Source of the DNA: a virus
Taxonomy: Duplodnaviria; Heunggongvirae; Uroviricota; Caudoviricetes
Virus record (IMG/VR): IMGVR_UViG_2657245521_000009
Strand: one strand, 5' to 3'
Length of the DNA: 11,592 nt
Under the pieces are notes generated by a model. It saw nothing but the letters and a program-made list of their open reading frames with translations. It was not told where the DNA came from and did no database searches. Shown here piece by piece: positions 804 through 10,100 of this stretch; positions within the stretch are counted from its first letter, which is position 1, and each line of letters opens with the position of its first letter. A program made the position numbers and the translations under genes.

Positions 804-848
804 ATTCGTATCACAAGCAGCCAGGAGTATCCAAGCAGGATATGAAGG
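804..848. repeat. Copy A of a shared element ATTCGTATCACA(A/T)GCAG...GATATG
   Basis: 804-820 ATTCGTATCACAAGCAG matches 5924-5940 at 16/17 positions; 839-845 GATATGA matches 5941-5946 plus one base after 5947, where copy B has an extra T. Copy A carries an 18-nt insert (821-838) that partly duplicates the motif. Lies 37-81 nt upstream of the start of the 561..767 gene (minus sense). Confidence 0.6.
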
Positions 849-869
849 TAACCCAGTATGTTACCTTCA
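843..869 (-). terminator. Strong hairpin just after the stop of the 246-aa gene; possible terminator or attenuator
   Basis: Perfect 10-bp stem TGAAGGTAAC/GTTACCTTCA (843-852 / 860-869) with 7-nt loop; 14 nt downstream of the minus-strand stop at 883-885; 3' flank on the minus strand is only weakly U-rich. Confidence 0.3.
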
Positions 870-882
870 CTGTCTGATATCA

Positions 883-1623
883 TCATTCGGTACTAAGCCC
901 CTGCCACAACGCCCTGTTACCAGGTTTATGCACTTGCCGGGAAATCTCACGGCACTTTTTCAGACGTTTCAGTTTTGCTTCCGTCCTGCGAATTTCAGCG
1001 CTGATCGCCCGTGGTGTAGGGATGACAACGTCGTCGTGCCGCCGTTCTGTGAATGACGGTATCGACTGAATAAGGTCTGCAACGTTATCTGTTGAGGCTT
1101 CAGCAGCAGTTACTGATGCCGCTAACTTTATTGCTTCAGGTTGCGGCGCAGGATTATCGTCGCGCCCCATGGCTGAACAGGCTTTCTGTTTCTCCGGTAA
1201 ACCATCATCAGGCAGACTGTAACGAAACTTGCCATCATGATTAATCCGCAAAAGACGCCCCTTTCCCGTAGCCATCGCCAGCGTGGAGGCAACCTTCCTG
1301 GCTGTTGTGCTGAAGCGCCTGGACAGTTCATCCGCCGTCTGTGGGCCGTGTTTTCGGATAGCGTCTGTCAGCTGCTTCTCATCGATTTTCATAACCGTTT
1401 CCACTGGTGTTACAGGGTTCACTATTTTTTCTTTGGCAACGTCAGTCAGTTCCTTTTCCGGTCCGGACAGAGACCAGTAGCCGTTCAGGAATATCACCCT
1501 GCCTGAGTCTTCCTGCTCACGCAGCATTTCCAGAACATCTTTTGTCTCGATGAGCAGGCGTGCTGCGACCTCGCGAGCAGTGGCTTTTCCCATCGCTTTC
1601 AGTGCATCAGTCACTGTTTCCAT
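883..1623 (-). CDS. Phage protein with two tandem ~50-aa winged-helix-like repeats, 246 aa (DUF1627-like is a tentative recollection)
   Basis: ORF 883..1698; I prefer the ATG at 1623 (AGGAGA 8 nt upstream, 24 nt after the DnaC-like stop) over the overlapping start at 1698. Internal repeat visible in the protein: TDALKAMGKATAREVAARLL...GRVIFLNGYWSL and TDAIRKHGPQTADELSRRFS...GRLLRINHDGKFRYSL. Confidence 0.6.
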   Translation of the reverse strand: METVTDALKAMGKATAREVAARLLIETKDVLEMLREQEDSGRVIFLNGYWSLSGPEKELTDVAKEKIVNPVTPVETVMKIDEKQLTDAIRKHGPQTADELSRRFSTTARKVASTLAMATGKGRLLRINHDGKFRYSLPDDGLPEKQKACSAMGRDDNPAPQPEAIKLAASVTAAEASTDNVADLIQSIPSFTERRHDDVVIPTPRAISAEIRRTEAKLKRLKKCREISRQVHKPGNRALWQGLSTE

Positions 1624-1646
1624 TGACAATTTCTCCTGTGATTCAG

Positions 1647-2387
1647 TCAGGGCCGGTTGACGTTTTTTCGCCAGCTTTCCCAGCCAAAATTTACCCATCG
1701 GCCACCGTTCATGGACATTCTGTCCATCACCCGCTGACCTGCCAGCTTAGTCAGTGCATCATGGTTCAGGTTGGTCAGCATTCCGACGCTGCGCAGGGAT
1801 GCGGTCCGGCGATCAACAATCTGGTGCAGGATGACCTGCTCGTTGCGTGTCTCACGCTGCACACCAACCTCATCAAGGATCAGCAGGTCCACTCCGCACA
1901 GCTCCTTCAAAAATTTTTCACCCGAATTTCCATCATCGTACCCGGCATGAAGCGCACTCATCACGTCGGCGACGGTGATAACAATCACACTGCGTCCGGC
2001 GTTCATCAGGCGGTTACCTATGGCGGCGGCCAGATGATTTTTGCCGGTACCAGGCTTACCGCTGAACACAAAATTTGTACAACCGGTATCCAGTTCAGCA
2101 GCTATGGATTTGGCCTGGCTGAGCGCATGCTTCTGGCCGTCATTCTGCACCCGGTAATTCTTGAACGAGCATCTGCGATGCAGTGGCTGAATACCGGCCC
2201 GACCGAAGATTTTTTCGGCCCTGGTCTGGCGGTTAAGTCGGTCAATTTCCTCGCAGCGTCTGCGCCCTTCGGCTAGCTGCCATTCCCGCCACTCCCCCGG
2301 CGTCCGGAACGGTGCGGAACTGTTGGCCGACCGTGGCGCCAGTTTCCTGATGCGGGCCAGAATCCCGGTATCTGCGATGTTTCTCAT
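1647..2387 (-). CDS. DnaC/IstB-like AAA+ helicase loader (phage replication protein), 246 aa
   Basis: Walker A GKPGTGKNHLAAAIG and Walker B LLILDEVG in the translation; directly follows the replication organizer gene with a 6-nt gap; SD GGGGGTGA upstream. Confidence 0.85.
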   Translation of the reverse strand: MRNIADTGILARIRKLAPRSANSSAPFRTPGEWREWQLAEGRRRCEEIDRLNRQTRAEKIFGRAGIQPLHRRCSFKNYRVQNDGQKHALSQAKSIAAELDTGCTNFVFSGKPGTGKNHLAAAIGNRLMNAGRSVIVITVADVMSALHAGYDDGNSGEKFLKELCGVDLLILDEVGVQRETRNEQVILHQIVDRRTASLRSVGMLTNLNHDALTKLAGQRVMDRMSMNGGRWVNFGWESWRKNVNRP

Positions 2388-2393
2388 GGCTTG

Positions 2394-3311
2394 TCACCCC
2401 CTGAAACCCGGTGGAATGGTTGTGTCCGGTGGCGAAATATCCTGAATCCTGGTCGGGCTGTCGCGGCCACGATTGCCTCCCCGGTCCTGGTCTTTTGCCA
2501 GCCAGCCGGTGATAAATTTCCTGATGCCTCGGGCGGTTTTTCGTCGTCGTCGTTCGCTGAGCAGCCATCCGCGCTGATTACGCAGTGCCTGCCGGACGTC
2601 GACCGCCGGATACAGCGTCTCAAACTCGACAACCATCGATTCGGTCACGGAAAATTCAGAACCGTCGTTGAGCGGAAGCCGAATAAACTCAGGGTCATCA
2701 GGCGGTGTTGATGGCACACCAGCGCTCAGAGGCCGACGCTCAGGTCCGACATGGGCTGGTCCGGTACCATCGGGCAAACTCGCACCCTGTGACCCGAAAT
2801 TTTCATCCAGTTGCGTGGGGCTGATTTTTTCAGCTCCGCGCAAGAGGTTTTGATCTTTTAGATCTGTTTCTTTATCTTTATCTGGATCTTTATTAGTTGC
2901 CTTTGTGTTGGGCTCCTGTTCAAACACAGAACCAACACCTGTTGAACATGTGTTATTTTCGCTGGCAGATTGTGCTTCCTTCCTGTTCCTTCTTGACTGA
3001 ACAGATGCTTTTCCTGCTGCAGACTTTTTCGCTAAGGTTTCCCTGACCGAATGAAGATCATCTTCAATACGCTTGTGAACCCACTCCGTGCCGTTATCAG
3101 TAAAAAATTCTCTCAACGACTCTTCTACGGCTCCCCAACGCTCACTGCTAACCCGGGCAATCTTTGCCAGCCTGTTTTTCGGTATAGCCCTTCCGGTCTG
3201 CCAGTAATTGAACATCAGCAGTAAATAGGCCCCATGCTCCTCGGTTGAAAGATGCATTGTGTCAGCCAAGTAATCAGCGATATAAAGCTGCATGTATGGA
3301 AGTGCCGCCAT
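2394..3311 (-). CDS. Phage replication initiation/organizer protein (DUF1376/YdaU-like N-terminal domain; lambda O analogue), 305 aa
   Basis: N-terminus MAALPYMQLYIADYLADTMHLSTEEHGAYLLLMFNYWQTG fits the DUF1376 pattern from memory; K/D-rich low-complexity linker; sits upstream of the DnaC-like gene as in O-P type replication modules; SD GAGG before the ATG at 3311. Confidence 0.75.
   Translation of the reverse strand: MAALPYMQLYIADYLADTMHLSTEEHGAYLLLMFNYWQTGRAIPKNRLAKIARVSSERWGAVEESLREFFTDNGTEWVHKRIEDDLHSVRETLAKKSAAGKASVQSRRNRKEAQSASENNTCSTGVGSVFEQEPNTKATNKDPDKDKETDLKDQNLLRGAEKISPTQLDENFGSQGASLPDGTGPAHVGPERRPLSAGVPSTPPDDPEFIRLPLNDGSEFSVTESMVVEFETLYPAVDVRQALRNQRGWLLSERRRRKTARGIRKFITGWLAKDQDRGGNRGRDSPTRIQDISPPDTTIPPGFRG
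2851..2895. other. Candidate replication origin iterons inside the organizer gene
   Basis: ATCTTT(T)A-type repeats starting near 2853, 2862, 2874, 2886 (10-12 bp spacing) with three GATC sites within 40 bp. Caveat: the same DNA encodes the KDPDKDKETDLKD linker, so the repetition may be purely coding. Confidence 0.25.
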
Positions 3312-3361
3312 AACGCCTCGCTACGCTCTTTTCCGTTCGGTCTGAATACAAAAATTAATAC

Positions 3362-3378
3362 TCACTGGTCATGTCTCT
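3362..3378 (-). repeat. Copy 1 of the 17-nt element AGAGACATGACCAGTGA (minus-strand sense)
   Basis: Plus strand 3362-3378 TCACTGGTCATGTCTCT is identical over 17 nt to 3951-3967; embedded ATG is 61 nt upstream of the organizer gene start (3311) and opens a mini-ORF MTSEY. Confidence 0.7.
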
Positions 3379-3451
3379 CTGTTTGGTGCCGAACCTCCTG
3401 CTGGTGCTAGCCTGCTGATTCCCCAACCAACAGAACCACAGGAGGTTCGAC

Positions 3452-3664
3452 ATGTCAGATACAAAACTTAAAAATGGATTAACGCCTGAACAAATGGCAC
3501 ACGATATCGCTATGGTGCTCATCGGGAACCCATCCCATGAATGGCTTTCGGATAATGCGACCAAAACTCGTAGCACTGAATTAGCAATGAGCGCTGTAGC
3601 AGAAGAAGTCATGAACATGGAAAAACATCTTGCTGCAGCTCTTCATCAGTACACGGAGAACTAA
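3452..3664 (+). CDS. Hypothetical small acidic protein, 70 aa, encoded antisense within the early-right (minus-strand) operon
   Basis: Consensus SD AGGAGG 6 nt before ATG 3452; followed 9 nt after the TAA stop by a strong intrinsic terminator; the overlapping minus-strand ORF 3355..3618 has antisense-like composition. No family recognised. Confidence 0.55.
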   Translation: MSDTKLKNGLTPEQMAHDIAMVLIGNPSHEWLSDNATKTRSTELAMSAVAEEVMNMEKHLAAALHQYTEN

Positions 3665-3672
3665 TCCGCATC

Positions 3673-3700
3673 AAAGGTCGCTGAGTTCGCGACCTTTTTT
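3673..3700. terminator. Rho-independent terminator between convergent genes; strong for plus-strand RNA, partial for minus
   Basis: Stem AAAGGTCGC/GCGACCTTT (3673-3681 / 3689-3697), 7-nt loop, T6 run 3695-3700. On the minus strand the same hairpin has only UUUGAUG after it, so it could act as a tR1-like partial terminator. Confidence 0.7.
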
Positions 3701-3921
3701 CAGTCCACTCCAGTAGGCATCCCCAACCATTTTTTTATATCGCTATAACTCAGCGTTATGGGCTGATTTTTGCCGGACTCTTCAACCGGTATGGTATGTT
3801 CCTCTTCAAATTTCTTTTCGAAGGTACGCATGTGCTCACGCCAGGCATTTCGATCTTCGATCGCTTCTTCCCTCCGGTTCAGTCTGGCGTAATACCGTTC
3901 CTGCTCAGTCAACGTTTTCAT
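3700..3921 (-). CDS. Hypothetical small protein, 73 aa
   Basis: ORF 3700..3954; start set at ATG 3921 because AGGAG lies 5 nt upstream; charged, helix-prone product MKTLTEQERYYARLNRREEAIEDRNAWREH... Confidence 0.5.
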   Translation of the reverse strand: MKTLTEQERYYARLNRREEAIEDRNAWREHMRTFEKKFEEEHTIPVEESGKNQPITLSYSDIKKWLGMPTGVD

Positions 3922-3937
3922 TACTTCTCCTGCATGG

Positions 3938-4441
3938 TTACAACAGATGGTCACTGGTCATGTCTCTGATACTGCTGGCGGTAACTGCTTCGTAGCGTCT
4001 GTATTGCTTGTATGGCTTCATCACACTCCCGTTCAAAATCCGTAACAGGCGCACCAAGAAGTACCGCATTTGCCACTGCGGTTTTTTTAAAAACTGTGTA
4101 AGCAGATACTCGATGCTATGCCCTGCCGTGACCTGCTTATGCAGCTCCGGCGCGTGTATCCGGATTGCTTCAAGAACTGCGGGGATTAGCGCTGAAAACT
4201 TTTCGCGGTGCTCTGTCGTTTCGAGTTTTCGCCATCGCTGAAAAATGTTTATACGATTCCGGCGCCATGCTTCGTAATCCACCGTTCCGTCATCACGTTC
4301 TATACGGTGGACAGCAATATCTGGTCTCACTTGCTGTTCCAGAAAGGCGCGGGTGATCAACTGTGTTGCACTTTCCTGACTCATTGCGGGTGTAGCCAGC
4401 CAGGATGACAGTGCTTTGTTGGCATCCTCAGGGGTGATCAT
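3938..4441 (-). CDS. CII-like regulator, YdaT-family (tentative), 167 aa
   Basis: Immediately downstream of the Cro-like gene, overlapping its stop by 14 nt; SD AGGTG 7 nt before ATG 4441; position and size match ydaT of Rac-type immunity regions. Family assignment is from recollection, not a search. Confidence 0.55.
   Translation of the reverse strand: MITPEDANKALSSWLATPAMSQESATQLITRAFLEQQVRPDIAVHRIERDDGTVDYEAWRRNRINIFQRWRKLETTEHREKFSALIPAVLEAIRIHAPELHKQVTAGHSIEYLLTQFLKKPQWQMRYFLVRLLRILNGSVMKPYKQYRRYEAVTASSIRDMTSDHLL
3951..3967 (-). repeat. Copy 2 of the 17-nt element AGAGACATGACCAGTGA (minus-strand sense)
   Basis: Identical 17-mer to 3362-3378; overlaps the last codons of the CII-like gene; embedded ATG is 40 nt upstream of the 73-aa gene start (3921). 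Confidence 0.7.
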
Positions 4442-4703
4442 CGTTGTTCACCTCTCTCGCATCCTTTAGTGGTAGATTTTGATGGCTAGGCAAAGCATCC
4501 GTTGGATTAGGGTAAAGAACTGAGTCGAGCTGATGCGGTGTAACTGCATACCCTACGGCCTCACAAAAAGGAATAATTCGTCGCGGTGGGAATTTTCCTG
4601 TTGTAACCCATAGACTTACGTTTTGCTGACTAGTTTTAAGACGTCGGGCGATCTCGGTCTGATTAGTGATGCCGAATAGTCGGCTCCTGGTTTTAAATTC
4701 CAT
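4428..4703 (-). CDS. Cro-like HTH regulator, YdaS-family pattern, 91 aa
   Basis: HTH segment GITNQTEIARRLKTSQQNVSLWV followed by the P..R...EAVGY.V....L motif typical of YdaS-like proteins; GGAGG 4 nt before ATG 4703; divergent from the repressor gene across a 102-bp operator region. Confidence 0.7.
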   Translation of the reverse strand: MEFKTRSRLFGITNQTEIARRLKTSQQNVSLWVTTGKFPPRRIIPFCEAVGYAVTPHQLDSVLYPNPTDALPSHQNLPLKDAREVNNDDHP

Positions 4704-4805
4704 ATATCCTCCAAATGTCACACTTGTATAAATACAGCATGAACTTGTATTTTACAAATTTAAATTTGTGTGACGCTAACAAAATTTACTTGTAAAATAT
4801 GAGGT
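4704..4805. promoter_or_regulatory. Divergent promoter/operator region between the cro-like and cI-like genes (OR-like)
   Basis: AT-rich; perfect 16-bp palindrome ACAAATTTAAATTTGT (4754-4769); TTGTA-N3-TACAA inverted repeat (4745-4757); ACTTGTA half-sites at 4722-4728, 4743-4749, 4788-4794; TTGTAAAAT present in both orientations (candidate -10 elements); TAAAAT 4793-4798 ends 7 nt before the repressor ATG. Confidence 0.6.
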
Positions 4806-5240
4806 ATGAAAAAAAACAACGAATCAGCTCAATACGAGACTTCAGCCAGAAGGATCAAACAGGTCCTGTATGAATTAGGCTGGAACCAAAGTCGCCTGGC
4901 TAAAGAAATTGGGGTTTCAGCTCAGGCGGTACAACAATGGGCAAAAGGTACTTCTCGACCGAATGGCCCTAATCTAACTCGACTTTCTGAAGTCACAAGC
5001 AAACCTGAAGCATGGTTTTTCAGTGATGTCAGCGGGTTATCTGAGAGTCATGCAGTACATTTACCAGAAAGTAATGGTTCAGACTTTCTCCCGCTTAGCG
5101 ATGAAGAGATCAGACTGCTAACTGTCTTCAGGAAATTTCCTTCTGTAGAGAGTAAAAACATGCTGTTAGCGTTTGAGATGAGACTTCAGGAGATAAAAGA
5201 ATACTATTCCAAATACGCTAATCCCAATAAAAACCGATAG
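4806..5240 (+). CDS. CI/RacR-like prophage repressor, HTH_XRE N-terminal domain, no S24 peptidase domain, 144 aa
   Basis: HTH QSRLAKEIGVSAQAVQQWAKG; divergent from the cro-like gene; C-terminal 60 aa lack an Ala-Gly cleavage site and Ser-Lys dyad; candidate -10 immediately upstream suggests a short or absent leader. Confidence 0.8.
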   Translation: MKKNNESAQYETSARRIKQVLYELGWNQSRLAKEIGVSAQAVQQWAKGTSRPNGPNLTRLSEVTSKPEAWFFSDVSGLSESHAVHLPESNGSDFLPLSDEEIRLLTVFRKFPSVESKNMLLAFEMRLQEIKEYYSKYANPNKNR

Positions 5241-5266
5241 TCTCCTTCTTTCCTCCCCCAACAATC

Positions 5267-5293
5267 ACAAGCCTGCTTGAAATGCAGGCTTGT
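5267..5293. terminator. Strong hairpin after the repressor gene; possible terminator lacking a U tract
   Basis: Perfect 10-bp stem ACAAGCCTGC/GCAGGCTTGT (5267-5276 / 5284-5293) with 7-nt loop; no T run on either strand, so function is uncertain. Confidence 0.3.
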
Positions 5294-5299
5294 TACACC

Positions 5300-5420
5300 T
5301 CGCATAATAAAACACTTAAATTTCATACAATTAAAAATTTTTAGTGATTTTCTCACTTTAAACACTTGTATTTATCAAATCCATTTTGTAGATTGATTGT
5401 ACAAATCCTCTAGCAACACA
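5300..5420 (+). promoter_or_regulatory. Candidate left operator/promoter (OL/PL-like) for the plus-strand early operon
   Basis: AT-rich; 10-mer ACACTTGTAT (5362-5371) is identical to 4720-4729 in the cro/cI intergenic region; further TTGTA half-sites at 5386-5390 and the palindrome TTGTACAA at 5397-5404. Confidence 0.45.
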
Positions 5421-5476
5421 TGCGCGACAGGTAAACGTTCCGCCGACGGGCGTAAAACAAAGATGAGGACGACAGA

Positions 5477-5665
5477 GTGGACAAGACTGAACTGAAACAC
5501 ATTATCGCCCTGCTCCTGGAAGATGCAAAACGTCTTCAGCAGGTTGAACCAAATGCAGGCACTGAGGCCCGCATATGGTTGGCTAATAAAACACTTAATT
5601 CATTCAGAGAGTTAAGCGGTTTTGCAAGAGGGTCAGGTATCTCTACCGAACACCAACTTTCTTAG
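5477..5665 (+). CDS. Hypothetical small protein, 62 aa, GTG start
   Basis: GTG 5477 with GAGG 8 nt upstream; first ORF after the OL/PL-like region; 3' end overlaps the convergent zinc-ribbon gene by 23 nt, which lowers confidence. Confidence 0.35.
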   Translation: MDKTELKHIIALLLEDAKRLQQVEPNAGTEARIWLANKTLNSFRELSGFARGSGISTEHQLS

Positions 5666-5831
5666 CTAGCGCCTCCATAATAATAGAATGTCGTTCGCTA
5701 AGAATGCCGATTGCCGCCCCGCAAAGTGCACACTGAACGAAGTGAATAATGTGACTGCAATTTTTCACTGAGGAATTGGTTTTTAACTCAAAAGAAGTTG
5801 ATGGGCATTTTGGACAGGTTGTTACAGCCAT
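5643..5831 (-). CDS. Small zinc-ribbon protein (C-x2-C ... C-x2-C), 62 aa
   Basis: Translation MAVTTCPKCPSTSF...VQCALCGAAIG has Cys 6, 9, 34, 37; GGAGGG 6 nt before ATG 5831; transcribed against the plus-strand early operon. Confidence 0.55.
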   Translation of the reverse strand: MAVTTCPKCPSTSFELKTNSSVKNCSHIIHFVQCALCGAAIGILSERHSIIMEALAKKVGVR

Positions 5832-5923
5832 ATTTTACCCTCCACGGGGTCGATGTTGGTGGAGTTCCCGACGGACGAGGTCGGGAATGTGCGCCGGACA
5901 CAGGTATAAATCCGGCATACGAA

Positions 5924-5950
5924 ATTCGTATCACATGCAGGATATGTATT
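5924..5950. repeat. Copy B of the shared element ATTCGTATCACA(A/T)GCAG...GATATG
   Basis: Contiguous 27-mer ATTCGTATCACATGCAGGATATGTATT matching copy A (804-848) apart from the insert in A; lies 93-119 nt upstream of the zinc-ribbon gene start (minus sense). Confidence 0.6.
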
Positions 5951-6077
5951 TAAACACGAGCACATAACCGAAAACGCACTACGCAGAACCTTCCTTGTCG
6001 GGTCTGTCGTTAAATTTACTGCGATAGTGCGTTTCCGGTTATGAGTGAAAATCATAACAGTGCTGTGTGTAGTCTTT

Positions 6078-6123
6078 GACGGTATCCGTTAACAAAGTTT
6101 TCCTGGCTGATACCGTCCTTTTT
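6078..6123 (+). terminator. Intrinsic terminator, plus strand
   Basis: 9-bp stem GACGGTATC/GATACCGTC (6078-6086 / 6109-6117), 22-nt loop, then CTTTTT (6118-6123); the reverse strand has no U tract. Confidence 0.5.
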
Positions 6124-6308
6124 CAGAATGAATTTTATAGTGTGGTGAATGCGGCTCAGCGCACGTGACACAGTTAAAAACATGTCAGTCCTTCATCTGT
6201 TGATGGGTGGGAATGTTCGTCGGCAGTAATGGTTAGCTGTTTACTGTCACCGGGAGGCACCCGGCACCACACTCCAAAATTCATTGTGTTACCAGAATGG
6301 AGACAACT

Positions 6309-6599
6309 ATGCCAGTTACACCTGAAATAAAACAAAACTCAGACTGGATGCGGCGCAACAAATCTGAACAAACCGCCCCTGCCTGTAAGCCTGGTATTAT
6401 TCAGAAAATATTAAGTACGCTGAACCAGAAAGGTGACCCCACCCTTATTCCTTGCGCTTATTGTGGCAAAGCCATCAACAAAAGTGAAATCGTGGAGCAT
6501 GAACTTATTTATATAAACGGAAGTCAGCTCGCAAGAAAAACGAATCTATATTGCAGTAAACGATGTGCCGAATATGACCAGATGGCACATGAATCTTAA
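6309..6599 (+). CDS. Hypothetical Cys-containing small protein (CAYCGK ... CSKRC, possible zinc ribbon), 96 aa
   Basis: ORF 6297..6599; start set at ATG 6309, which has GGAGA 5 nt upstream; family not recognised. Confidence 0.5.
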   Translation: MPVTPEIKQNSDWMRRNKSEQTAPACKPGIIQKILSTLNQKGDPTLIPCAYCGKAINKSEIVEHELIYINGSQLARKTNLYCSKRCAEYDQMAHES

Positions 6600-7078: not shown

Positions 7079-7095
7079 AGAGACATGACCAATGA
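7079..7095 (+). repeat. Copy 3 of the 17-nt element (AGAGACATGACCAATGA), plus-strand sense
   Basis: 16/17 identical to the minus-strand copies; embedded ATG is 67 nt upstream of the recE start (7152) and opens a mini-ORF MTNEHQR; flanked by hairpins at 7056-7075 and 7102-7122. Confidence 0.65.
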
Positions 7096-7151
7096 GCACC
7101 AGAGGTGATCACCGATCGCCTCATTCTAAACAGAAGTGAGGTTAAAAAACA

Positions 7152-10100
7152 ATGAGTGATAAGAAAGAAGATTTCGCGCTGTACTGCCCTGTTAAAAATG
7201 AAGAGGCCAGGAAACGACTTGGAATAAAAGCAGGCTTTTTCTGGGCAACTGCAAAAAAATTATCTGTGGCTGTTTCCCGCTGTATTGCTGCTATGGACGA
7301 TAAGGGGTATGACGAGGATGACTTTAAAAAACCTGTTCGCGTCAATTACCCCGTCGTTAACGACCTGCCTCCTGAAGGCGTGTTTGATACTGAATTCTGC
7401 AACCGTTACGAAAAAGGCGGTCAGGGTGGTATCACAATGGTACTTATCCCCGGCGCTGTTCCCGCCGATCCAATGCACGGCGAAGTCGGCAGGGATATTA
7501 CTGGCAGCGGCAACGCAGACGCAGACGCAGACGCAGGCACAGACGCAGATAATGCTACGGACAATACCGAAAGTACGCTCCTCCCCGCTTACGCTTATAA
7601 CGTCAACGGCGAACTGATGTCGGAAGTGGAAAAGGAAATGTCGCAGCCTGTTTCAGGACTAAGTCTGCCACTTCGTTTCCTGGCGCAATTTAATAACGAC
7701 TGTCCACAACATCAGGTCACACCAGAGCGTTTACGGGAGTTAAACCTTACAGAGCAGGATCCCGACAGTCGTACCGGAACTATTTTACTCGCCATCCAGA
7801 ACAGAAAGGAACAGCTCGAAAAACTGGACACAAAAAACCTGCATCCTTTGGCGACGTACATTGAAAAAGTATTTCCCTGCGGAAAACGACCACAACTCAA
7901 TGATGTCATTAATTTTATCGATGCCGTACTTAATACAGACTATGTCGATCGCGGACTGCTCGTTAAGGAATGGTGCGAAGGTCGTCGAGCCGCGTGCGTA
8001 GAGCATGTAACAGCACCAGAAACCAGGCGTGATAATACTGTGTCAGCGCAGACGGAAACGAAGACTACTGTCACTGAACGTCCGCGTCGTAGCGAAAAAA
8101 CAACGCACCGGACGATTAATTATGAAATTGGCTGTGGCTTATATGACGGCGAGCTGGATCTTCATAACCTGAGGGAACCGCTGGATTTTGCGAAACGCAT
8201 TATGGCGAAAGACCGGGAAGACTGGAAAGTATGGTCAGACACAATCAACTGCATCCCTGGCATCCTGAATTATGACCGCCAGACCATTATCGAGATGGTA
8301 CGAAAAGCCCCCACCCCGACTTATCACAGTGCTGCACTGCGCCGCGAGTGGTGTGATTCTTATCTGCGAGCCTGGGGACGGCTCGATCCCGACTGGAGCC
8401 AGAGCGCCGCTGTCAAAACAGCAGAGTCACATGAAGATGTCTGTGCTGATATCAGGAAGGCCGGAAAGCGCCTGCGTGAAATTGAATCAGGAGTTGGGAT
8501 CAATGAAGAAAAACAGACGACACAGGGAGAACTGGCAGATGAACCGTCAGCGCCTGAATCAGTGGAACCGGCTTCAGCTGAACATCAGCAGAATACGCAG
8601 CCGCTGGATGCTGAGGCATCTGTAAACACCACTAAAACGGAATTCGATGTATTTGCTCTAATGCAGAACTCATCTGTTTATGGCAGCAAAAACACACAGG
8701 AGACGACCAGCAATGTGCAGGTTCAGGACGCTGAAAAGGATGAAAAACAGGCTGGTACTGAAGTTCAGTCAGGCGAAAGCAGTCTGGGAACTGGTGAAGA
8801 GTCAGATACCAGACAGCAAGCCGATGTAAACCAGAATACGGATTCTGTCGCCCAAAATAGCGATTCTGTAAACCAAACTGAACCAGTTTTGGCACAAACC
8901 GAGCCAGAAGTGCAATCTGACGAACCGGCTGTTGTTTACCCCGCTTACTTCGAACCAGGCCGCTATGAGGGTCTGCCGAACGAGGTTTATCACGCAGCCA
9001 ACGGTATCAGCTCGACAATGGTAAAAGATGCGCGGGTGAGCCTGATGTACTTCAATGCGCGCCACGTAGAGAAAACCATTATCAAAGAACGCTCTCCTGT
9101 ACTGGATATCGGTAACCTGGTGCATGCACTGGCGTTGCAGCCAGATCAACTCGATGAAGAATTCAGCATTGAACCCGTAATTCCGGAAGGTGCATTTACC
9201 ACCACGGCAACGATCCGCGCGTTTATTGATGAGCACAACGCCAGCCTGACAGCGATGCTGTCAGCCGACGACATCAAAGCACTGTTAGAAGAGTACAACG
9301 CCACCCTTCCTGCTCAGGTTCAGTTAGGTGGTTCCGTGGAGGAAACTGGCCAGAGCTATATGTCGCTGCCAGAAGAGTTCCAGCGTCTCGAAGCGGACAA
9401 GAAGCAGACCGCAGCGGCAATGAAAGCCTGCATCAAGGAATACAACACCACACTGCCTGCACAAGTGAAAATCAGCGGTAGCCGTGATGCGTTACTCGAG
9501 CAGTTAGCAATCATCAATCCTGACCTGGTGGCGCAGGAAGCGCAGAAGCCCGCGCAGTTGAAAGTGTCCGGCACCAAAGCGGATCTGATTCAGGCCGTGA
9601 AGTCTGTTAATCCTGATGCCATCTTCGCCGACGAACTGCTGGATGCGTGGCGCGAAAATACGCAAGGGAAAGTGCTGGTCACCCGCCAGCAACTGAGCAC
9701 TGCACTGAGCATTCAGAAAGCCCTGCTCGAGCACCCTACAGCGGGCAAGCTACTGACACACCCGAGCCGCGCCGTTGAGGTGAGCTACTTCGGTTTTGAC
9801 GACGAAACCGGTCTGGAAGTCCGCGTTCGTCCCGACCTTGAGATCGATCTTGACGGGGTGCGCATCGGCGCCGACCTGAAAACCATCAGCATGTGGAACA
9901 TTAAACAGGAAGGTCTGCGCGCCAAACTGCACCGCGAAATCATCGACCGTGACTACCACCTGAGTGCTGCCATGTATTGCGAGACCGCAGCGCTTGACCA
10001 GTTCTTCTGGATTTTCGTCAACAAAGACGAGAACTACCACTGGATCGCCATCATCGAGGCATCCGCCGAACTTCTGGAACTGGGCATGCTGGAGTACCGC

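Follow-up and report, generated by a model that had tools for sequence, protein, structure and literature searches.

The early region of a Rac-like lambdoid prophage (IMG/VR record IMGVR_UViG_2657245521_000009, assigned to Salmonella; the whole stretch of 11,592 nucleotides (nt) analyzed is hereafter called the window) contains two copies, A and B, of a short sequence element, each of which lies upstream of a small minus-strand gene. The gene following copy A encodes a 68-residue protein of the DUF1187 (YdaC) family and that following copy B a 62-residue zinc-ribbon protein. By comparison of their sequences, the copies are homologous to one another and to a block that is conserved upstream of DUF1187 genes in island loci, and copy B occupies the position at which a promoter is predicted in relatives. 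The interpretation that we favor, and consider about as likely as not, is that A and B are paralogues that each represent part of the same sigma-70 extended -10 promoter, with copy A native to a DUF1187 cassette and copy B a 23-nt derivative of it. We infer that the block is a promoter at all, and that the window copies, which have G at position 6 of the -10 hexamer, still fire; the repeat is real but most likely ordinary.

As read on the plus strand, the repeat, ATTCGTATCACA(A/T)GCAG, is located at 804-820 (copy A, ATTCGTATCACAAGCAG) and 5924-5940 (copy B, ATTCGTATCACATGCAG). It is followed by GATATG, directly in copy B (5941-5946) and, in copy A (839-844), after an 18-nt segment, CCAGGAGTATCCAAGCAG, which itself repeats CAAGCAG. 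These sequences and coordinates are as given in a preliminary description of this DNA, as are the distances to the minus-strand starts of the 68-residue gene (767) and the zinc-ribbon gene (5831). The same description regarded the repeat as improbable by chance, which holds for the element as a whole, but not for its 12-mer or ungapped part. There are 24 direct 12-mer pairs in the window, so a 12-mer identity is nothing unusual, and an ungapped repeat scoring at least a 16/17 match occurs in 38% of dinucleotide shuffles (mean 0.43 per window); the ungapped 16/17 match by itself has no significance. When the gapped GATATG is included, the expectation is ~0.01-0.03 by a rough estimate, and the family motif CTGCNTGTGATA, which was defined from homologous regions upstream of DUF1187 genes elsewhere, matches the window at A and B only, both on the minus strand, with 0.01 matches expected.

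The distribution of the element is narrow. Both copies are unchanged in the close relatives L001-L008, L010 and L011, an observation that carries little weight because these relatives are ~99% identical overall, and both are absent in the L018 lineage. When 2.9 million viral contigs were searched for exact matches to the 17-mer, only two pieces of this prophage and two chance matches were returned, and no diverged copies were obtained. The pattern TTGGNNACNNNNNNCTGCNTGTGATA gave the same prophage only, together with one chance match inside a coding region (L039); a looser pattern, CCTGCNTGTGATACNNNT, was of no use, giving more than 120 unrelated matches. In blastn comparisons with E. coli genomes and phages, region A gave no match and the matches to region B were confined to the conserved blocks that flank it.

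DUF1187 is a conserved protein family (PF06688), with conservation at the protein level evident in the alignment (A2), and the homologues closest to the window protein (59-73% identity) are encoded in Salmonella integrative elements and islands, where they have five different upstream neighbors. In the minus sense, copy A aligns with the regions upstream of the DUF1187 genes in L022, L027, L024, L163 and L165, and in these five other distinct Salmonella island sequences the block corresponding to copy A is the most conserved one upstream of the gene. The string C.TGTGATA is invariant in all six distinct upstream regions, that of the window included, and TGTGATAC, with TG at -15/-14, one base before the hexamer, is present in both window copies and in 5/5 island copies. 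The island block has a promoter-like arrangement (-35 TTGGCG, a spacer of 16-17 nt, then TGTGATAAT, GATACT or GATATT), and its hexamers, i.e. GATACT in L022 and L027, GATATT in L024 and L165, and GATAAT in L163, vary at position 5, with A2, T6 and the TG all being kept. Variation of this kind is characteristic of a TG-extended -10 sigma-70 promoter. The island copies have the A2 and T6 of a sigma-70 -10 hexamer; the window copies, both GATACG, keep A2, but G replaces T6. A -35-like box is found 16 nt from the hexamer in copy A (TTGGAT) and 16-17 nt from it in the islands (TTGGCG or TTGGCA), and copy B has TTTAAA at 16 nt, which is possibly a replacement; the -35 box is dispensable in extended -10 promoters.

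In a position-weight scan, for which shuffled 150-mers gave a mean best score of 6.4 bits and a 95th percentile of 10.07 bits, the block was the top sigma-70-like site in the intergenic regions of L022, L027, L163 and L165 (9.3-12.3 bits). In L022, L023 and L027 the gene upstream of DUF1187 is divergent, so the intergenic region must contain a promoter, and a consensus scan found no other consensus promoter in these three regions. Similarity among the DUF1187 cassettes begins at the -35 box (TTGG(C/A)), and the genes upstream of it differ; as judged from these alignments, copy A is apparently the 5' edge of a promoter-plus-gene cassette, the upstream limit of which is marked in the window by a hairpin (Table 1). 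Where translation of a DUF1187 gene is coupled to that of the gene before it, as in other prophages, IncI2 plasmids and Rac-SA53 (in which the homologue of the 68-residue protein is annotated ydaC), the block is lacking. The RNA fold of the leader that contains copy A is unremarkable (z = -1.65).

The same comparisons bear on how the two copies came to differ. The 18 nt that separate the repeat from GATATG in copy A had been described as a partial duplication splitting it, but there has been no recent insertion: an ancestral two-repeat layout, CTGCTTGG-N10-CTGCNTG (CTGCTTG in the window), the first repeat of which overlaps the -35 box, is kept in the DUF1187 cassettes of other elements, and copy B is therefore the deleted form, corresponding to copy A minus the 18 nt that separate its two CTGCTTG repeats. 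Three states are common to A and B and absent from the islands, i.e. G at hexamer position 6, GAAT after the hexamer, and CATATC before the block, so that A and B are each other's closest relatives. A 14-nt stretch of copy B, CCTGCATGTGATAC, is in addition identical to the L027 island copy (14/14).

Copy B lies within a lineage-specific junction between two blocks that are conserved in relatives. The window is 90.8% identical to L018 up to 5919 and becomes alignable again from 5962; E. coli TOE17 and the Rac prophage of E. coli K-12 differ at this same junction, with the flanks conserved. The zinc-ribbon gene has a strong Shine-Dalgarno sequence (GGAGGG), its homologues at 90%, 92% and 55% identity retain the cysteines, and it occupies the slot held by sieB in K-12 Rac. 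Because it is antisense to the pL-like operon, it needs a promoter of its own. Copy B places the end of its hexamer 95 nt before the ATG of the zinc-ribbon gene; the best predicted promoter in TOE17 (TTTTCA-17-TAAACT, 9.8 bits) ends 94 nt before the ATG of its gene, and the candidate promoter in L018 92 nt before the corresponding ATG, all three sites being just upstream of the conserved hairpins of the 5' untranslated region (5'UTR). From these matching distances and the position relative to the 5'UTR, copy B occupies the place at which the antisense gene should have its promoter. The 5'UTR itself, which begins right after copy B, is conserved in L018 and TOE17, with two pairs showing compensatory changes, and its G-U pairs are consistent with a minus-sense RNA. 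It is common to unrelated antisense genes, encoding the zinc-ribbon protein in the window and L018 and a 69-residue protein in TOE17, and it resembles a portable leader serving the sieB slot.

Taken in sequence, the steps proposed are as follows. Copy A would be the native upstream block of a mobile DUF1187/YdaC-family cassette, comprising promoter plus gene, which would have entered the pR-like operon behind the DUF1627 gene. Copy B would be a 23-nt derivative that, having lost the 18 nt between the CTGCTTG repeats, came to reside in the mosaic junction, where it would supply a TG-extended -10 element to the zinc-ribbon gene, with transcription starting at ~5918-5922. A common promoter for the minus-strand small genes, one of the possibilities raised in the preliminary description, is thus the explanation that fits the comparative evidence best, even though the GATACG copies score poorly.

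Several points weigh against this proposal. The window copies reach 5.7-5.8 bits, i.e. below the mean best score of the shuffled 150-mers, and neither was listed by the consensus promoter scan, so that by sequence alone A and B are weak or decayed promoters; it may be that their activity is weak or depends on an activator. The island block itself reaches the 95th percentile of the shuffles in two loci only. The comparison involves only six distinct sequences, all from Salmonella and some closely related. The DUF1187 gene is possibly read through from pR, in which case copy A need not be active. Other assignments of the element were considered. An alternative -10, TATCCT, in the shared CATATCCTGC (5.9-6.9 bits) is possible but not preferred because it is not conserved in the island copies. 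On inspection by eye there was no match, and the assignment was rejected, for a sigma-54 promoter (the GG-N10-GC spacing is wrong), a sigma-E promoter (GGAACTT is absent), a sigma-S promoter (C at -13 is absent), a cAMP receptor protein (CRP) site (the second half-site is absent), or LexA, IHF, and 434- or lambda-type operators (no matching dyad).

The apparent decay of the window copies makes credible, although still unlikely, a reading in which neither has a function: copy B would be the vestige of a DUF1187-type upstream region, deposited at a mosaic junction through illegitimate or short-homology recombination, and copy A a decayed promoter made redundant by read-through from pR. The phage encodes RecE/RecT, copy B is inside a 42-nt lineage-specific segment flanked by conserved blocks, and the 18-nt difference between the copies is bordered by 7-nt direct repeats, a typical signature of slippage or deletion. 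The T to G change at the key -7 position is present in both copies, in line with their poor promoter scores, and relatives that have the DUF1187 gene and a 92%-identical zinc-ribbon gene have neither copy. The palindrome at the edge of copy B also resembles a junction artefact, with ~3.5 such palindromes estimated to occur per window by chance. Against this, the zinc-ribbon gene still requires a promoter, and copy B is at the exact position used in relatives; the constancy of both copies in every close relative examined adds little, the relatives being too similar overall. It is improbable, in our view, that the element is instead an operator through which a phage or host DNA-binding regulator co-regulates the two small genes, as the preliminary description had suggested. 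The same 17-23 nt do precede two genes on the same strand, copy A has two direct repeats, CTGCTTG(T)GATAC, 18 nt apart in a layout conserved in the island copies, and copy B overlaps a perfect palindrome. However, only B has the palindrome and only A the pair of direct repeats, leaving no dyad common to both, and the variation among the islands (position 5 free; A2, T6 and TG kept) is that of a -10 element. Moreover, L003 and L007, which match the window at 99-100% identity outside 4455-5418, have a different repressor/Cro module, without the operator-like ACTTGTATTTWWCAAAT repeats; A and B are unchanged in both despite this swap of the immunity module, and are therefore not operators of the immunity repressor.

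Pairing in trans between opposite-strand transcripts that carry the two copies is doubtful to a similar degree. It could take either of two forms: plus-strand RNA of the pL-like operon containing copy B could pair with pR read-through mRNA containing copy A, or, as with RalR/RalA, a plus-strand RNA antisense to the DUF1187 locus (copy A) could pair with the zinc-ribbon leader (copy B). The copies are direct DNA repeats, so opposite-strand transcripts would have 12 + 4 bp of complementarity and 6 more after a bulge, which is relevant only where both RNAs are made and extend over the copies. The duplex has an energy of -36.2 kcal/mol, compared with -24.5 +/- 4.1 for shuffles, but both the complementarity and the favorable energy follow automatically from the repeat. 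The window lineage has both copies and that of L018 neither, there is the precedent of RalR/RalA in E. coli Rac (PMC4041452), and Pfam gives a faint Lar_restr_allev match (E = 0.007) for the zinc-ribbon protein. That match, however, scores 17.0 bits, far under the cut-off of 28.6, and BLASTP gave no alignment of the zinc-ribbon protein with RalR of Rac-SA53. There is no well-scoring plus-strand promoter near either copy (best 4.7 bits at A, in the scanned stretch 768-900, and 4.5 bits at B) and no Rfam match at either. The A-type block is kept in islands where a second copy is not seen within ~7 kb, so its conservation is independent of a pairing partner. The paired region would stop short of the start codons by 37 nt (A) or 93 nt (B), and if the copies are promoters, transcripts from those promoters would exclude them.

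Nothing was found in favor of the proposal that copy B is the 5' end of a plus-strand small RNA (sRNA) that pairs with the copy-A mRNA: the best plus-strand promoter at B scores 4.5 bits, and the Rfam matches begin only at 6064. Those matches are DicF-like (6064-6118, E = 0.11) and to STnc100 (6117-6321, 39.5 bits compared with a gathering score of 47); placement of copy B within a DicF or STnc100 (PasD-like) sRNA was rejected, since B ends at 5946. The leader in which the matches lie (~5962-6296) is homologous to the sieB-kilR intergenic region of K-12 Rac, with copy B outside the homologous blocks, and part of it is matched in 4327 of 5426 E. coli genomes. It contains a long hairpin with arms at 5963-5981 and 6025-6043, then the DicF-like match, which is a terminator hairpin, and the STnc100/PasD-like module. 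On the plus strand at 934-960, antisense to the 3' end of the DUF1627 gene and 90-150 nt downstream of copy A, there is a GC-rich stem of 5 bp (TGCCG...CGGCA), its loop being 10 nt long, followed by CTTTTT; it is weak, was seen by eye only, and is relevant only if a plus-strand RNA crosses copy A.

The features considered are collected in Table 1.

Table 1. Elements and genes of the window, by position.
Feature	Position	Strand	Sequence or remarks
Copy A, full homologous block	804-844	minus	minus sense CATATC-CTGCTTGGATACTCCTGG-CTGCTTGTGATACGAAT
Copy A, -35-like box	829-834	minus	TTGGAT; spacer 16 nt
Copy A, TG	814-815	minus	
Copy A, hexamer	807-812	minus	GATACG
Copy B, 23 nt	5924-5946	minus	minus sense CATATC-CTGCATGTGATACGAAT
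Copy B, hexamer	5927-5932	minus	GATACG
Copy B, TG	5934-5935	minus	
TTTAAA upstream of copy B	5949-5954	minus	16 nt upstream; possible replacement -35
Hairpin	845-869	minus	GAAGGTAAC-N7-GTTACCTTC; between DUF1627 stop codon and copy A; no U-tract
Lineage-specific junction, 42 nt	5920-5961		contains copy B; between two blocks conserved in relatives
Perfect 7-1-7 palindrome	5917-5931		ATACGAAATTCGTAT; at downstream end of copy B; absent from copy A
Structured 5'UTR of antisense gene	5832-5916	minus	three hairpins; begins right after copy B
Operator-like repeats	4743-4759, 5364-5380		ACTTGTATTTWWCAAAT; ACTTGTATTT(T/A)(A/T)CAAAT; flank repressor gene
DUF1187 (YdaC-family) gene	561-767	minus	68 residues; downstream of copy A; Pfam PF06688, E = 1.3e-18
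DUF1627/YdaW gene	883-1698	minus	pR-like operon
DnaC-like gene	1647-2387	minus	pR-like operon
DUF1376/YdaU gene	2394-3311	minus	pR-like operon
YdaT gene	3938-4441	minus	pR-like operon
YdaS-like gene	4428-4703	minus	pR-like operon
Repressor gene	4806-5240	plus	
62-residue gene	5477-5665	plus	
Zinc-ribbon gene	5643-5831	minus	62 residues (CPKC...CxxCG); antisense inside pL-like operon
Long non-coding leader, then YdaE-like gene, RecE, RecT		plus	downstream of the 62-residue plus-strand gene

Near-identical copies of the window are found in many assemblies, and where a source is named for the closest DUF1187 homologues, it is Salmonella enterica. The DUF1187 protein is conserved more widely, across prophages, integrative elements and IncI2/IncF plasmids (534 plasmid records). 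A scan of genome contigs with the DUF1187 alignment gave one match, which was spurious, and a metagenome scan added only a duplicate of L027 and motif-free loci. On a Plesiomonas plasmid (NZ_CP062198.1; L162), ~100 nt upstream of the DUF1187 gene, TATCACAAGAATCTTGTGTGTGATAAT forms an inverted pair, TATCACA/TGTGATA, ending in a TGTGATAAT extended -10-like box; it is possible that this is a distant relative of the block, here with a dyad. The ydaC locus of E. coli is reported to make no protein, with the RalA sRNA being encoded on its other strand (PMC4041452). Both views, of DUF1187 as a protein family and of ydaC as the RalA locus, may hold.

Elsewhere in the window, a hexanucleotide repeat, (ACGCAG)n, in the recE-like gene (7513-7542) codes for a DADADA stretch. 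A third repeat, TCACTGGTCATGTCTCT, is present as two identical 17-mers in the plus-strand text (3362-3378 and 3951-3967) and as an inverted 17/18 copy (7079-7096); in the local direction of transcription all three read AGAGACATGACCA(G/A)TGA. The copies at 3362-3378 and 7079-7096 are ~50-55 nt upstream of the ydaU-like and recE starts, respectively, and that at 3951-3967 abuts the start (3954) of an 84-residue open reading frame and is ~30 nt from an internal ATG (3921). These repeats could be nut-like or processing sites.

If the preferred interpretation, of a duplicated extended -10 promoter, is correct, the element would be a small-scale example of how lambdoid prophages wire accessory genes: a promoter travelling with a DUF1187/YdaC cassette would have been partly copied into a mosaic junction, there driving an unrelated antisense gene in the sieB slot, so that two prophage-expressed small genes would have the same core promoter. 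For annotation, it provides likely transcription starts for two unannotated small genes and a recognizable upstream box for one subclade of DUF1187 cassettes. No long-standing question is opened by the repeat, and a larger significance would come only via the unproven RalA-like RNA pairing, which, if true, would mean that the linking of a ydaC locus to a small zinc-ribbon gene recurs as a design among Rac-like prophages.

In the known system, the ydaC (DUF1187) locus of E. coli Rac encodes the RalA sRNA on the opposite strand, and this sRNA pairs, via a repeat of 16 nt, with the mRNA for RalR, a small zinc-ribbon toxin (PMC4041452). A direct repeat corresponding to RalA/RalR is visible in Rac-SA53. 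The likeness to the window is that of a Rac-like prophage in which a direct DNA repeat of ~16 nt joins a small zinc-ribbon gene and a ydaC/DUF1187 locus, and in which the two loci would be transcribed from opposite strands. By contrast with RalR/RalA, the repeats in the window are upstream of both open reading frames rather than inside them, the loci are 5.1 kb apart rather than adjacent, no homology of the zinc-ribbon protein to RalR is detectable, and neither a promoter nor a terminator for an antisense sRNA is evident. It appears very unlikely that the window encodes a trans-acting antisense pair of the RalR/RalA type, with the zinc-ribbon protein as a new toxin or defense effector restrained by RNA.

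The window also invites comparison with the boundary sequences of lambdoid mosaic junctions, in that copy B is in a 42-nt segment where homology breaks and the phage encodes RecE/RecT; unlike such sequences, however, that in the window is confined, among 2.9 million viral contigs, to a single prophage lineage, and it is therefore not a widely shared linker. A further comparison is with the phage "moron" cassette, i.e. a gene carrying its own promoter and inserted into a lambdoid operon. The window copies differ from the extended -10 (TGn) sigma-70 promoters of such cassettes in having G at the last hexamer position, and copy B also in being without the ancestral -35 box. The points of likeness are as follows. 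There is a TG one base before a GATAxT hexamer and a TTG-type -35 located 16-17 nt upstream, the lambda PL (GATACT) and PR (GATAAT) hexamers match those of the block, the block is at the 5' edge of a small gene cassette in unrelated contexts (prophage and integrative elements), and one of the two genes is antisense to the early-left operon, as is sieB in lambda and Rac.

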